From NCBI RefSeq assembly GCF_056746865.1, contig NZ_CM163382.1: a DNA stretch of 64,000 nt. One strand, given 5' to 3'. The notes under the pieces are model-generated. The model worked only from the letters and a program-made list of their open reading frames with translations. It searched no databases and had not been told where the DNA came from. Position 1 is the first letter of the stretch, and every line of letters begins with the position of its first letter. Below are positions 15,058 to 51,830 of the stretch, piece after piece. The position numbers were made by a program, and so were the translations under genes.

Positions 15058-18000
15058 ATGAAGTTTTTACCCTATATTTTTCTTCTCTGTTGTGGTCTTT
15101 GGTCGACCATAAGTTTCGCAGACGAAGATTACATCGAATATCGTGGCATCAGTAGTAACAACCGTGTCACACTTGATCCACTACGTCTGAGCAACAAGGA
15201 ATTACGTTGGTTAGCGAGCAAGAAAAATCTTGTGATTGCAGTACACAAGTCCCAAACGGCTACGTTGTTGCATACCGATTCGCAGCAACGGGTTCGTGGT
15301 ATTAATGCTGATTATTTAAATCTGTTAAAAAGAGCGTTAAATATCAAATTAACACTCCGGGAATACGCCGATCATCAAAAAGCAATGGACGCGCTGGAAG
15401 AAGGTGAAGTCGATATAGTGTTATCACATTTAGTTGCTTCGCCGCCTCTTAATGATGACATTGCTGCAACCAAACCACTGATAATTACCTTTCCGGCGCT
15501 CGTCACCACCCTTCACGATTCAATGCGACCGCTTACCTCATCAAAACCAGTAAATATTGCTCGAGTAGCAAATTATCCCCCTGACGAGGTAATTCATCAA
15601 TCATTTCCAAAAGCAACAATTATCTCTTTTACAAATTTATATCAGGCATTAGCATCCGTCTCAGCCGGACAGAATGATTACTTTATTGGTAGTAACATCA
15701 TTACCAGCAGTATGATTTCCCGCTATTTCACTCACTCCTTAAATGTAGTGAAATATTATAACTCGCCGCGTCAATATAACTTTTTCTTAACCAGAAAAGA
15801 TTCAGTCGTTCTTAATGAAGTACTCAATCGGTTTGTTGATGCTTTAACAAATGAAGTTCGCTATGAAGTATCACAAAATTGGCTTGATACAGGAAACCTG
15901 GCCTTTCTGAACAAACCATTAGAACTGACTGAACATGAAAAACAGTGGATAAAGCAGCATCCCGATTTAAAGGTGCTGGAAAATCCTTACTCCCCTCCCT
16001 ATTCTATGACGGATGAAAATGGCTCGGTTCGGGGCGTTATGGGGGATATTCTTAATATTATTACCTTGCAAACAGGTTTAAATTTTTCTCCGATCACCGT
16101 TTCACACAATATCCATGCCGGAACACAGCTTAATCCCGGCGGATGGGATATATTACCTGGTGCTATTTATAGTGAAGATAGAGAAAATAATGTTTTATTT
16201 GCTGAAGCCTTCATAACAACGCCTTACGTTTTTGTCATGCAAAAAGCGCCTGACAGTGAACAAACATTAAAAAAAGGAATGAAAGTTGCCATTCCCTATT
16301 ATTATGAGCTTCATTCGCAATTAAAAGAGATGTATCCGGAGGTAGAGTGGATAAAAGTCGATAACGCCAGCGCTGCATTTCACAAGGTCAAGGAAGGTGA
16401 ACTTGATGCTCTGGTCGCGACACAGTTAAATTCGCGTTACATGATCGACCATTACTATCCTAATGAACTTTATCATTTTCTTATTCCCGGCGTTCAGAAT
16501 GCATCACTTTCGTTCGCTTTTCCTCGCGGAGAACCGGAACTTAAGGATATTATTAATAAAGCACTGAATGCAATTCCCCCAAGCGAAGTTCTGCGCCTGA
16601 CGGAAAAATGGATTAAAATGCCCAATGTGACCATTGACACATGGGATCTCTATAGCGAGCAGTTTTATATTGTTACGACATTATCCGTTTTATTAGTTGG
16701 CAGTAGCCTTTTATGGGGATTCTACCTGTTACGCTCAGTTCGTCGTCGTAAAGTCATTCAGGGTGATTTAGAAAACCAAATATCATTCCGGAAAGCACTC
16801 TCGACTCCTTACCGAATCCAACTTATGTCGTAAACTGGCAAGGTAATGTCATTAGTCACAATAGTGCATTTGAACATTATTTCACTGCTGATTACTACAA
16901 AAATGCAATGTTGCCATTAGAAAACAGTGAATCACCCTTTAAAGATGTTTTTTCTAATACGCATGAAGTCACAGCAGAGACGAAAGAAAATCGAACAATA
17001 TACACACAGGTATTTGAAATTGATAATGGCATCGAGAAAAGATGCATTAATCACTGGCATACATTATGCAATCTGCCAGCCAGCGATCATGCTGTTTATA
17101 TTTGTGGTTGGCAAGATATTACCGAGACGCGTGATTTAATTCATGCTCTCGAAGTAGAGAGAAATAAAGCGATCAATGCAACTGTCGCAAAAAGTCAGTT
17201 TCTGGCAACAATGAGTCACGAAATAAGAACACCAATAAGCTCCATTATGGGCTTCCTGGAACTTCTGTCGGGTTCTGGTCTTAGCAAGGAACAACGGGTG
17301 GAGGCGATTTCACTTGCCTACGCCACCGGACAATCACTCCTCGGCTTAATTGGTGAAATCCTTGATGTCGACAAAATTGAATCGGGTAACTATCAACTTC
17401 AACCACAATGGGTCGATATCCCTACTTTAGTCCAGAACACTTGTCACTCTTTCGGTGCGATTGCTGCAAGCAAATCCATCGCATTAAGTTGCAGCAGTAC
17501 GTTTCCTGAACATTACCTGGTTAAGATCGACCCTCAGGCGTTTAAGCAGGTCTTATCTAATTTACTGAGCAATGCTCTCAAATTTACCACCGAGGGGGCA
17601 GTGAAAATTACGACCTCCCTGGTTAACATTGATGACAACCACGCTGTAATCAAAATGACGATTATGGATTCTGGAAGTGGATTATCACAGGAAGAACAAC
17701 AACAACTGTTTAAACGCTATAGCCAAACAAGTGCAGGTCGTCAGCAAACAGGTTCTGGTTTAGGCTTAATGATCTGCAAAGAATTAATTAAAAACATGCA
17801 GGGTGATTTGTCATTAGAAAGTCATCCAGGCATAGGAACGACATTTACGATCACAATCCCGGTAGAAATTACCCAACAAGTGGCGACTGTCGAGGCAAAA
17901 GCAGAACAACCCATGACACTCCCTGAAAAGTTGAGCATATTAATCGCGGATGATCATCCGACCAACAGGCTATTACTCAAACGCCAGCTAAACCTATTAG

Positions 18001-18650
18001 GATATGATGTTGATGAAGCCACTGATGGTGTGCAAGCGCTACACAAAGTCAGTATGCAACATTATGATCTGCTTATTACTGACGTTAATATGCCGAATAT
18101 GGATGGTTTTGAGTTGACTCGCAAACTCCGTGAGCAAAATTCTTCCTTACCCATCTGGGGGCTTACAGCCAACGCACAGGCTAACGAACGTGAAAAAGGG
18201 TTAAATTGCGGCATGAACTTATGTTTGTTCAAACCGTTGACCCTGAATGTACTGAAAACACATTTAAGTCAGTTACACCAGGTTGCGCATATTGCACCTC
18301 AGTATCGCCACCTTGATATCGAGGCCCTGAAAAATAATACGGCGAACGATCTACAACTGATGCAGGAGATTCTCATGACTTTCCAGCATGAAACGCATAA
18401 AGATCTACCCGCTGCGTTTCATGCGTTAGAAGCTGGCGATAACAGAACTTTCCATCAGTGTATTCATCGCATCCACGGTGCGGCTAACATCCTGAATTTG
18501 CAAAAGTTGATTAATCTTAGCCATCAGTTAGAAATAACGCCCGTTTCAGATGACAGCAAGCCTGAAATTCTTAAGTTGCTGAACTCTGTTAAAGAACACA
18601 TTGCAGAGCTGGACCAGGAGATTGCTGTTTTCTGTCAACAAAATGACTAA
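15058..18650 (+). pseudogene. evgS: Hybrid sensor kinase EvgS, interrupted by a 1-bp frameshift near 16803
   Basis: Two ORFs (15058..16833 frame 1; 16908..18650 frame 3). Frame 3 is already open from 16803 and carries the continuation DSLPNPTYVVNWQ...; true N-part 582 aa + C-part 615 aa = 1197 aa, the length of intact EvgS. Confidence 0.7.
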
Positions 18651-44107: not shown

Positions 44108-44433
44108 CTAAAACATAGCCTTTGCTATGTTTCATGCTATGCCAAACGAGAATGATTATCAAATTCATTTAAATGGGTTGTGGTGATTTCTCTGATAGAC
44201 CAGGATTATGACTACGAAAAGATTGATGACTTGAATGTTATGGTTATGTTTAATGTTAGCACATTTACATAACTTTCAGCTTCCATACACAACATAGCAG
44301 AAATGTATGACAGCTCACTATTTTTGAAGCTTGTCACAGGACGTCATTATAGTGTGTGTCAGATCTCGTTTTCCTTAACCATGTTACATAGAATGTGCAC
44401 GGAAATTTAACCTGCCTCATATTTGGAGCAAAT

Positions 44434-45636
44434 ATGGACCGCGTCCTTCATTTTGTACTGGCACTTGCCGTTGTTGCGATTCTCGCACTGCTGGTAAGCA
44501 GCGACCGCAAAAAAATTCGTATCCGTTATGTTATTCAACTGCTTGTTATCGAAGTGTTACTGGCGTGGTTCTTCCTGAACTCCGACGTTGGTTTAGGCTT
44601 CGTGAAAGGCTTCTCCGAAATGTTTGAAAAACTGCTCGGATTTGCCAACGAAGGGACTAACTTCGTCTTTGGTAGCATGAATGATCAAGGCCTGGCATTC
44701 TTCTTCCTGAAAGTGCTGTGCCCAATCGTCTTTATCTCTGCACTGATCGGTATTCTCCAGCACATTCGCGTGTTGCCGGTGATTATCCGCGCAATTGGTT
44801 TCCTGCTCTCCAAAGTCAACGGCATGGGCAAACTGGAATCCTTTAACGCCGTCAGCTCCCTGATTCTGGGTCAGTCTGAAAACTTTATTGCCTATAAAGA
44901 TATCCTCGGCAAAATCTCCCGTAATCGTATGTACACCATGGCAGCAACGGCGATGTCCACCGTGTCGATGTCCATCGTTGGTGCATACATGACCATGCTG
45001 GAGCCGAAATACGTCGTTGCGGCGCTGGTACTGAACATGTTCAGCACCTTTATCGTGCTGTCGCTGATCAACCCTTACCGTGTTGATGCCAGTGAAGAAA
45101 ACATTCAGATGTCCAACCTACACGAAGGTCAGAGCTTCTTCGAAATGCTGGGTGAATACATTCTGGCAGGTTTCAAAGTCGCCATTATCGTTGCCGCGAT
45201 GCTGATCGGCTTTATCGCCCTGATCGCCGCGCTGAACGCACTGTTTGCCACCGTGACTGGCTGGTTTGGCTACAGCATCTCCTTCCAGGGCATCCTTGGC
45301 TACATCTTCTATCCGATTGCATGGGTGATGGGTGTTCCTTCCAGTGAAGCACTGCAAGTGGGCAGTATCATGGCGACCAAACTGGTTTCCAACGAGTTCG
45401 TTGCGATGATGGATCTGCAGAAAATTGCCTCTACACTCTCTCCGCGTGCTGAAGGCATCATCTCTGTGTTCCTGGTTTCCTTCGCTAACTTCTCTTCAAT
45501 CGGGATTATCGCAGGTGCAGTTAAAGGCCTGAATGAAGAGCAAGGTAACGTGGTTTCTCGCTTCGGTCTGAAGCTGGTTTACGGCTCTACCCTGGTGAGT
45601 GTGCTGTCTGCGTCAATCGCAGCACTGGTGCTGTAA
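44434..45636 (+). CDS. nupC: Nucleoside:H+ symporter NupC (CNT family)
   Basis: 400-aa ORF from [11 protein letters not shown]...; concentrative nucleoside transporter family. Confidence 0.9.
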
Positions 45637-45646
45637 GACCATACAT

Positions 45647-45678
45647 AAAAAAGCCGGGGATAATTCCCCGGCTTTTTT
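45647..45678 (+). terminator. Rho-independent terminator after nupC
   Basis: AAAAAAGCCGGGGA-taatt-CCCCGGCTTTTTT. Confidence 0.7.
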
Positions 45679-45685
45679 ACGCCTG

Positions 45686-47875
45686 TTAATCAGCTAATGG
45701 CTGCGGGCGACCAATCAAATACCCTTGCAGATATTGCACCCCGAGCTTATGCAATAGCGCCTGCTGCTGTTGCGTCTCGACAAACTCCGCGACCACACTC
45801 AATGACTTCGCTTTCGCCAGATCGGTAATTGATCTCACAATCATCGCATCCAGCGTATTCGTGACGATATCTTTCACAAAGACGCCATCAATTTTGATGA
45901 TATCAGCCTGCAAACGCTTTAACCGTTCGTAGTTGGCATAACCGGTGCCAAAGTCATCAATCGCAATCCGGAAACCAAACTTATGCAGTTGCTCGATGTT
46001 GTACATGCTGCTTTCTGCGTTAGAAAACGCCTGCTCCTCGGTGATCTCAAGAATGACCGCCTGCGGGGAGATGTGATAACGCTTAAACAGACGAATAATC
46101 CGCCCGGCAATATTCTTTTGCAGCAGCGTGAGCGGCATTAAATTGACTGAAAAGCGCGGGCCTTTTTTGTCGCAAGGATGTGTTGCCAGCCACTTCAACA
46201 GGGATTCCAGCACTTGCAAATCAAAACGCGCGCTAAGGTTAAACTGAGCAATAAGGGGCAGAAACTTATCCGGGGTCATAATGCCGCCGTCATATTTCAG
46301 TCGCGCGAGGATCTCATCATAACCTTCACCCTCTTTGTTGCGAATTGGCTGGGCGTAGAGCAGCAAATCACCCTGATCTAACGCCGTGCGAATGGTATTC
46401 AGCAATAGCACCTGTTTAGTGGTCTGCCCGGAAACCATCTCCTCTCTGCTATCCAGCGCCAGCACATGGTGATGTGCGCAGGATTGCTCCGCCAGCCAGC
46501 TTAACTGCCCCAACAAGGGTTGCAGGGTTTCCTGATTTCCATCAAAACGCCCCCAGGCAGCACCATAGCCCATATCCAGCCCGGTATTGTTCCAGTGAAT
46601 TTGCCGACTATTCAGGATGTTAACCATATGCTGGAGTCGCCCTTCCGTTTCCGGTCCACTCAGCACTAACAGCAGTTCACTACCCGGCAATTGATACAAC
46701 TTTTCGTTTTCCTGCATCAACGGCAGCAGCGTACGGTAAATTGAGCGGATACAGTGAACGCGCATCATTAAGCCGTAATGACGACTCATAAACTCAAGAT
46801 TATCAATGCGCAGGCAGCAAAAACTCTTGCCCGCCTCTTGCTCCGGCGCTTGCTCCAACGCACGAAAGTTGGGTAGGAGCGTTAACGGATCGGTCAGCGC
46901 CTGCAAATGCCAGCGGCGATTAAGCCATTCACTGCGATGATAAATGCGCACCATATAGAGCAGGCAAACGCTAAAGGAAATCAGCACCGCGAGAATAAAT
47001 GCCAGCGAATATTCGGTTAGTACCCCTTGCAAAAAGTTCTGGTTGTAATTCAGCAGGCAAAGCGTTGAAACAGCCCAGGTGAGATTTAAAAACGGATAGC
47101 GAAGCTTACCGACACCGAGGGTAAAGATGATAAAGAAAACAGGTACCAGGTAACCGGCAATAAAGTCATTCTCATACGGTGTGCACATCAGAAGTAGCAG
47201 CACGCTAAGAGCTGCCAGCCAGCTTAAGGTAAATGCGCGTTTCTCTTTGCTCAACGACGGAGCGATATCCCTGCGCCACAATATCTGCGCAAAGTGGGGA
47301 CTTACAATCATGCGAGTGAGATAGTAGAAAAGCATGTTGTAAATCAGCACAGCGGTGAAAAGGCTTAGTAAATCAACGACTGTGAAAATGGCATCCGCAT
47401 CGCCGAAAAAGGTGGATATCTTTAGCGGGAAATCAAAAAAGCTCCCCACAAGATACATGCTGCATTTGATGCCGATCGGCGTCACCAAACCAAGCCAGAA
47501 AAGACGTTGCCAGACATATCGGCTGGTCAATCCATAACGCCAACGCGTCCCCAGCTGCCAGCGTAATATTGCGCAGGCACACAACACAACAAACGTCTGG
47601 CTGCCGAGCATGACCGCGGTCTGTAAAAAAGAGAGATGAAAGTTCCACAGATTGGTGCAAAACATCCCGCATAAAACGGGAACGACACCGCGCCAGCCAA
47701 AGATAAACAAGATTGACAGCATTACGCACAGTGGCATCCACGCCAGAAAGATATAACTGGAATGGATAATGGCAAGTGGCGAAATAAAACGGGATAGCTG
47801 AATAAGTACCACGGTGAGCGTAAACGCTAGTGTGAATATCTTGATATTTTTTATCAGGTTATGCTCCACAAACAT
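45686..47875 (-). CDS. pdeA: c-di-GMP phosphodiesterase PdeA (YfeA): MASE1 membrane domain, degenerate GGDEF, EAL
   Basis: 729-aa ORF from MFVEHNLIKN...; multi-TM N-terminus, C-terminal EAL domain. Confidence 0.85.
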   Translation of the reverse strand: MFVEHNLIKNIKIFTLAFTLTVVLIQLSRFISPLAIIHSSYIFLAWMPLCVMLSILFIFGWRGVVPVLCGMFCTNLWNFHLSFLQTAVMLGSQTFVVLCACAILRWQLGTRWRYGLTSRYVWQRLFWLGLVTPIGIKCSMYLVGSFFDFPLKISTFFGDADAIFTVVDLLSLFTAVLIYNMLFYYLTRMIVSPHFAQILWRRDIAPSLSKEKRAFTLSWLAALSVLLLLMCTPYENDFIAGYLVPVFFIIFTLGVGKLRYPFLNLTWAVSTLCLLNYNQNFLQGVLTEYSLAFILAVLISFSVCLLYMVRIYHRSEWLNRRWHLQALTDPLTLLPNFRALEQAPEQEAGKSFCCLRIDNLEFMSRHYGLMMRVHCIRSIYRTLLPLMQENEKLYQLPGSELLLVLSGPETEGRLQHMVNILNSRQIHWNNTGLDMGYGAAWGRFDGNQETLQPLLGQLSWLAEQSCAHHHVLALDSREEMVSGQTTKQVLLLNTIRTALDQGDLLLYAQPIRNKEGEGYDEILARLKYDGGIMTPDKFLPLIAQFNLSARFDLQVLESLLKWLATHPCDKKGPRFSVNLMPLTLLQKNIAGRIIRLFKRYHISPQAVILEITEEQAFSNAESSMYNIEQLHKFGFRIAIDDFGTGYANYERLKRLQADIIKIDGVFVKDIVTNTLDAMIVRSITDLAKAKSLSVVAEFVETQQQQALLHKLGVQYLQGYLIGRPQPLAD

Positions 47876-51400: not shown

Positions 51401-51488
51401 GCTATATGCGGTTTGTAAGATTGATTTTTCTTCTCAAGTTCCTTGTTCTTCTGCCGATATTACCTCGTACAGTGACGAGGACTGAACA

Positions 51489-51830
51489 ATGGCCACTATC
51501 TCTCCAACTTCAATTCCTTCCATACAAACACAGAGTAGTAACAGGGCATCAGAAGGTAGCGATGTTGCTTCACAAATTGCGCGGATAAGTCAGCAAATCA
51601 TCAAACTCACTCAACAAATTAAAGAGATTGCAGACACTAGCGGCAGTGCTGAAGACAAGCAAAAACAGGCCGAATTGATTCAGCAGCAAATCACCCTACT
51701 GGAAACACAACTGGCGCAGTTGCAAAGACAGCAGGCAGAAAAAGCGCAGGAGAAAGAGCAGCGTTTGTCTCTGAATGCATCCCTTCCAAATCCTGTTGAA
51801 AAAACGACTCAGATCGATATCTATATCTGA
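51489..51830 (+). CDS. Hypothetical 113-aa coiled-coil protein (possibly FlxA-like); absent from K-12 at this position
   Basis: ORF with GAGGA Shine-Dalgarno 9 bp upstream; Ser/Thr-rich N-terminus then Q/E/K-rich heptad-like segment ([15 protein letters not shown]...[22 protein letters not shown]); overlaps the yfeR 3' end by 10 bp. Confidence 0.5.

Follow-up and report, generated by a model that had tools for sequence, protein, structure and literature searches.

Introduction

One described hot spot for the insertion sequence IS186 is the lon promoter, where, according to PMC3045373, insertions fall at one position and in both orientations. The target of the element was the subject of a 2001 paper (J Bacteriol 183:6943, as cited in PMC3045373, PMC3861542, and PMC6925257), and the preferred target, in a second-hand quotation in PMC6925257, is 5'-GGGG(N6/N7)CCCC. 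When we searched the literature for IS186 together with nupC, we found nothing. On the chromosome of E. coli K-12 strain MG1655, an IS4-family element of 1339 bp with terminal inverted repeats, IS186B, lies between nupC and pdeA; RefSeq labels its transposase 'IS421 family', and the element is IS186.

A second K-12 feature, the cryptic prophage CPS-53 (KpLE1), is an integrase-bearing element that abuts the tRNA gene argW; intS lies directly 3' of argW and is followed by yfdG and further genes up to torI. The same neighborhood holds the variable argW-dsdCXA island. PMC11251922, which cites Jahreis 2002 and Moritz and Welch 2006, places the csc sucrose genes close to argW, in a hot spot of recombination, and describes them as universal across phylogroups D and E; the cscRAKB arrangement at the island is the typical one in phylogroups D, E, and B1.

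Here we analyze a 64-kb stretch of E. coli DNA (the window) that spans both of these loci. With a probability of about 93%, we read its nupC-pdeA junction as an ordinary, uninterrupted shared terminator and an unoccupied IS186 target, in a chromosome with the gene content of ST69-type phylogroup D strains. All of this falls within the known strain-to-strain variation of the E. coli accessory genome.

Results

The nupC-pdeA spacer contains a predicted two-way terminator

In the window, nupC and pdeA converge on a short spacer with the sequence GACCATACAT-AAAAAA-GCCGGGG-ATAATT-CCCCGGC-TTTTTT-ACGCCTG (Table 1). The initial annotation had reported that only a 49-bp, terminator-containing spacer separates the two genes, and our analysis agrees: the spacer has exactly this length and contains one perfect hairpin, predicted to be a terminator. 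The identity of the genes comes from a 649-bp query spanning the junction; it matches strain 118UI at 100%, and the genes there are named nupC and pdeA in RefSeq. In the annotation of this identical stretch, the nupC product is WP_000376337.1, a protein that K-12 also has in identical form, and the pdeA product is WP_001309635.1, as it is in strain SCU-313.

The hairpin folds with a free energy of -25.8 kcal/mol on the + strand (z = -6.0; none of 200 shuffled sequences was equally stable) and of -31.1 kcal/mol on the - strand, and a terminator scan picked it up as well. Six T residues follow the stem directly on the + strand, and the six A residues ahead of the stem read as T6 on the - strand; both hallmarks of a two-way intrinsic terminator, a stable G+C-rich hairpin and a U-tract 3' of it on each strand, are present. 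Judged by its sequence, the hairpin would end both the nupC and the pdeA transcripts. We found no match to any Rfam family in the spacer; the Rfam hits elsewhere in the window were tRNAs and the IS200-associated STnc490 only. Likewise, a promoter scan returned only one weak promoter-like match (9/12) in the spacer, on the - strand, and across the 1.3-kb region scanned such matches were no more numerous than in shuffled sequence.

Table 1. Positions of the features discussed, and places where the window (64 kb) departs from K-12.
Feature	Position in window	Strand	Basis or K-12 counterpart
Break with K-12: longer yfdF-like ORF	about 891-948		K-12: yfdF
argW, tRNA-Arg(CCU)	4006-4080	+	ARAGORN, Rfam
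DUF4942 gene fragment, 50 codons	4290-4442	+	Pfam PF13708 (E = 2e-6, profile 18-62 of 190); RefSeq
csc sucrose locus	4522-9406		Sequence identical to RefSeq-annotated 2017C-4173W12
cscB	4522-5769	-	RefSeq: oligosaccharide MFS transporter
cscK	5831-6754	-	RefSeq: aminoimidazole riboside kinase
cscA	6970-8403	+	RefSeq name cscA
cscR	8411-9406	-	RefSeq: LacI-family regulator
dsdX 3' remnant	9649-9867	+	K-12 homology; dsdA next
Break with K-12: 709-bp insertion	29941-30649		K-12: none
nupC (nucleoside permease)	44434-45636	+	ORF end, stop TAA 45634-45636; start converted from an extracted annotated locus
Spacer between convergent nupC and pdeA, 49 bp	45637-45685		ORF table
Two-way intrinsic terminator, predicted	45647-45678		A6, stem GCCGGGG, loop ATAATT, stem CCCCGGC, T6
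Unoccupied IS186 target GGGGATAATTCCCC, hairpin core	45656-45669		Motif match, GGGG-N6-CCCC
Break with K-12: empty IS186 target	45658-45667		K-12: IS186
pdeA (yfeA), c-di-GMP phosphodiesterase gene	45686-47875	-	ORF table; ends at 45686
Break with K-12: 409 bp	51411-51819		K-12: 4.56 kb with RtT sRNA gene, xapR, xapB, xapA, yfeN
Break with K-12: direct yfeK-cysM junction	63607-63609		K-12: 961 bp with yfeS

The window has the pre-insertion form of the K-12 IS186 site

The core of the hairpin, GGGGATAATTCCCC, is the sole match to GGGG(N6/N7)CCCC in the 64 kb, where shuffled sequences lead one to expect about 0.5 matches per spacing. We recognized IS186 by its 23-bp terminal inverted repeats together with an IS4-family transposase gene. 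A search of the whole 64-kb window for these repeats, tolerating up to three mismatches, gave no hit. In MG1655, IS186 lies inside this very hairpin with GGATAATTCC on both sides of it; the junctions read ...AAAAAAGCCGGGGATAATTCC / CATAAGCGCTAACTTAAGGGTTG at one end and CAACCCTTAAGTTAGCGCTTATG / GGATAATTCCCCGGTTTTTTT... at the other. The target duplication measures 10-12 bp, the range reflecting the ambiguous assignment of the end bases. Its presence on both sides of the element shows that IS186 truly inserted here in K-12.

The bases that are duplicated in K-12 are present in the window as a single copy, at 45658-45667. Thus the window shares with the MG1655 IS186B locus the chromosomal position, the flanking genes, and the target sequence, and differs from it in having no IS186 and only one copy of GGATAATTCC; it is the uninterrupted, pre-insertion form of the K-12 site, a structural reading that none of our observations contradicts. 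This bears out the statement in the initial annotation that K-12 has a copy of IS186 at this spot and the window has none. In K-12, only half of the stem remains to each gene after the insertion; the 3' ends left over reach a folding energy of only about -10 kcal/mol.

The two loci also differ at one base of the right stem, which reads CCCCGGC in the window and CCCCGGT in K-12. We considered whether this C/T difference could be a product of IS186 insertion and rejected the idea. At least 40 genomes, among them E. coli C and O121 strains, have an empty site that agrees at 100% over 590 bp with our reconstruction of the K-12 one, T allele included; since T is found at empty sites, it is part of the background and did not arise through the insertion.

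IS186 occupies the nupC-pdeA site in many genomes and in both orientations

We counted the states of this site in 5,426 complete RefSeq E. coli genomes. The junction is uninterrupted in 4,459 of them (82%). IS186 holds the site in 937 (about 17%), non-K-12 strains and many clinical isolates included; 472 of these copies have the K-12 orientation and 465 the opposite one, with ATCC 8739 and ML35 among the carriers of the latter. About 28 genomes show other states, such as an IS2 within the IS186 of Stbl4 or a deletion of nupC in strain ST2747. In ST2747, mntH runs straight into a pdeA that is annotated as slightly longer (equivalent to about 44400-45750 of the window). Across whole genomes, IS186 is found somewhere in 2,210 of the 5,426, and 59% have no copy at all; among IS186 carriers, then, about 42% (937/2,210) have a copy at the nupC-pdeA site.

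To compare the two orientations, we read the insertion position and the target duplication in one copy of each, MG1655 and CREC-629. In CREC-629, with the opposite orientation, IS186 lies at the K-12 position and is flanked by the same GGATAATTCC duplication. The element occupies 4332-5670 of the extracted K-12 locus and 2649-3987 of the extracted CREC-629 locus (locus coordinates), in both cases at the equivalent of window positions 45658-45667. The flanks of the two loci are identical for 1 kb on each side, and 2 SNPs distinguish the IS copies themselves.

The presence of both orientations, together with K-12-like flanks around an empty site, makes this look like a shared and probably recurrent target instead of a K-12 signature or a clean lineage marker. 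We lean toward the view that the nupC-pdeA terminator is a natural hot spot for IS186, with two or more independent insertions in wild E. coli. Consistent with a hot spot, the two orientations are nearly equal in number, position and duplication are the same in the one copy of each that we read, 2 SNPs separate these IS copies within identical flanks, and occupancy among carriers is about 42%. The site also resembles the lon promoter's hot spot: both have a G-run, a short spacer, and a C-run, and in both the same position is used both ways. They differ in what is hit. At lon the element enters a promoter and causes Lon deficiency, whereas the nupC-pdeA site is a predicted terminator between convergent genes.

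If the hot spot is real, insertion might alter read-through and expression of nupC and pdeA, because each insertion removes their shared predicted terminator, and the window would then serve as a reference for the state before insertion. In any case, the presence or absence of IS186 here is a poor marker of lineage, because the hairpin is a preferred target that is filled in both orientations and is also found empty beside flanks identical to those of K-12.

The empty site is most likely ancestral

The empty state is most likely ancestral in this genome, and we infer that IS186 never occupied the site in this lineage. In the explanation that we favor, IS186, a member of the IS4 family, has transposed into the loop of the GGGG-ATAATT-CCCC stem-loop in K-12 and in the roughly 17% of genomes that carry it there, duplicating 10-12 bp (GGATAATTCC) and breaking the hairpin in two. 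The source genome of the window would have had no such transposition into the site and would simply have kept the majority state.

An alternative history is that IS186 once occupied the site in an ancestor and was then lost by precise excision. A site restored in this way would look identical to one that was never hit, PMC3861542 reports that the element was precisely excised at the lon promoter hot spot, and about 42% of IS186-carrying genomes have the nupC-pdeA site filled. Against this stand the 82% of genomes that are empty at the site and the 59% that have no IS186 at all. Moreover, both occupied copies that we read, MG1655 and CREC-629, have T in the right stem where the window has C, and those insertions therefore arose on a different haplotype. 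We consider prior occupancy unlikely. Less likely still is that selection for an intact shared terminator explains the absence of IS186 in this lineage. It is true that neither gene keeps an intact hairpin after insertion, but 937 natural and laboratory genomes tolerate it, in either orientation; no constraint particular to this lineage is visible, and most E. coli are simply without IS186.

The initial annotation had itself named a misassembly, collapsing a repeat at these positions, as the way in which its reading could fail; the real genome would then have IS186 here, or a prophage beside argW, that the assembly had lost. Repeats can in general break or collapse in short-read assemblies, but we found no specific support for such an event here. 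The junction is seamless, with one copy of the 10-bp target and no IS186 end within 3 mismatches; the same nupC-pdeA junction is found in the 4,459 complete genomes with an uninterrupted site; the window from 30650 to 64000 is 100% identical to SCU-313; and the junction that the window has 3' of argW is common to 1,410 genomes. We exclude an artefact with near certainty, and an ancestral, never-occupied IS186 target remains the preferred reading.

A csc locus replaces CPS-53 and most of dsdCX beside argW

Homology to K-12, as seen by blastn, breaks off exactly at the 3' end of argW (4080) and resumes inside dsdX at 9650. Between these points the window has 5.6 kb (4081-9649), compared to 12.6 kb in K-12 that comprise CPS-53 (from intS to torI), dsdC, and most of dsdX. 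The window thus shares the tRNA attachment locus with the K-12 prophage, and the prophage is absent: intS does not lie directly 3' of argW, nor do yfdG through torI follow. What comes after argW instead is a fragment of a DUF4942 gene, then cscBKAR, a truncated dsdX, and dsdA. These findings support two claims of the initial annotation, that CPS-53 does not follow argW and that a csc island is present.

Four genes that, by their sequence, correspond to cscB, cscK, cscA, and cscR stand beside argW and dsdA in the known arrangement of the csc locus. Only cscA bears its name in the RefSeq annotation of 2017C-4173W12; the other three are presumably cscB, cscK, and cscR, names that we assigned here. 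Compared to the variable argW-dsdCXA island with cscRAKB, we found no difference: csc lies beside argW, replaces dsdC and most of dsdX, and leaves dsdA in place. What sets the window apart from K-12 at argW is accordingly a replacement, cscBKAR having taken over the position of dsdC and the larger part of dsdX; the locus is not simply an empty attachment site. A search downstream for a direct repeat of the argW 3' end, such as a leftover attachment site, yielded only short chance repeats. The DUF4942 fragment between argW and cscB, which is kept in many csc-positive genomes, may be the scar of an older island integrated at argW.

Both arrangements are common. The argW-to-cscB junction of the window occurs in 1,410 of the 5,426 genomes, and the argW-intS junction of K-12, with an intS-type element at argW, in 1,875 (35%), strain 55989 included. 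For SCU-313, a close relative of the window, PMC11251922 describes, in the part concerned with sucrose, only slow growth on this sugar.

The window comes from a lineage close to SCU-313

We aligned the window by blastn to 90 kb of MG1655. The two are colinear in blocks of about 96-98% identity (about 97.4% in the shared blocks) that are interrupted at six places. Identity to other strains is far higher: positions 1-25000 equal 2017C-4173W12 except for one 1-bp deletion and reach a score of 100.0% against many strains, including SCU-313, 118UI, and NMBU-W13E19. Over the 39 kb from 24737 to 64000, the window differs from SCU-313 by 1 SNP and a 709-bp IS200 element, and from 30650 onward the two are 100% identical. 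That the window belongs to a non-K-12 lineage, as the initial annotation proposed, is well supported by this near-identity to SCU-313 set against the identity to MG1655.

PMC11251922 lists SCU-313 as phylogroup D, ST69. By near-identity to this typed strain, the window probably comes from an ST69-type, phylogroup D E. coli chromosome; we made the assignment in this way because the MLST and Clermont loci lie outside the window. The chromosome is an ordinary one of its type, and the importance of the finding is small.

Accessory genes at the other breaks with K-12

Absence of the xap and yfeS genes, also claimed initially, is evident from both blastn and annotation: xapRBA-yfeN and yfeS are missing from the window. 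Each absence has its own character. Between lysV and yfeR, the window has a FlxA-like ORF (51489-51830; Pfam PF14282, E = 6e-15), and the RtT sRNA gene that follows lysV in K-12 is missing along with the xap genes. This arrangement, without xap and with the FlxA-like ORF, is a replacement and not a simple absence, and is the minority state, found in 1,299 of the 5,426 genomes. The junction without yfeS, on the other hand, is the majority state (4,038/5,426).

The K-12 map features IS186B, CPS-53, xap, and yfeS are thereby confirmed as accessory. The initial annotation had gone further and marked the K-12 features as lineage-specific insertions, and this holds in part. IS186 with its target duplication and CPS-53 with its integrase are indeed insertions, but they are not specific to K-12; IS186 is at its site in 937 of 5,426 genomes and an intS-type element is at argW in 1,875 of 5,426, and the differences at argW and xap are replacements.

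At the position of yfdF, the window has an ORF (523-1770) of 415 codons, compared to 352 in K-12, with no match in Pfam. The alignment to K-12 overlaps itself at about 891-948, and either a local duplication or a divergent segment may lie behind this.

Changes in two sensor kinase genes

An IS200-type element makes up the 709-bp insertion (29941-30649) and splits the sensor kinase gene ypdA. It contains a Y1 transposase ORF on the - strand (30048-30557; Pfam E = 5e-38) and an Rfam match to STnc490 (30516-30639), and the annotation of relatives gives its type as IS200C. Not one of the 5,426 complete E. coli genomes has an IS200 in ypdA (0/5,426), and the insertion is missing from the otherwise identical SCU-313.

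The gene for the acid-sensing kinase EvgS (evgS, 15058-18650) has a 1-bp deletion near 16804, CTCTCG[G]ACTCC, relative to 2017C-4173W12; this is the sole difference from that strain across 25 kb. The frameshift divides evgS into two ORFs of 591 and 580 codons; it may reflect either a genuine pseudogene or an error in sequencing. Strain ST3, which scored slightly higher in the comparison, may share the deletion. The changes in evgS and ypdA, each of them either real or a sequencing error, are missing from the close relatives that we compared directly, and both strike two-component sensor kinases.
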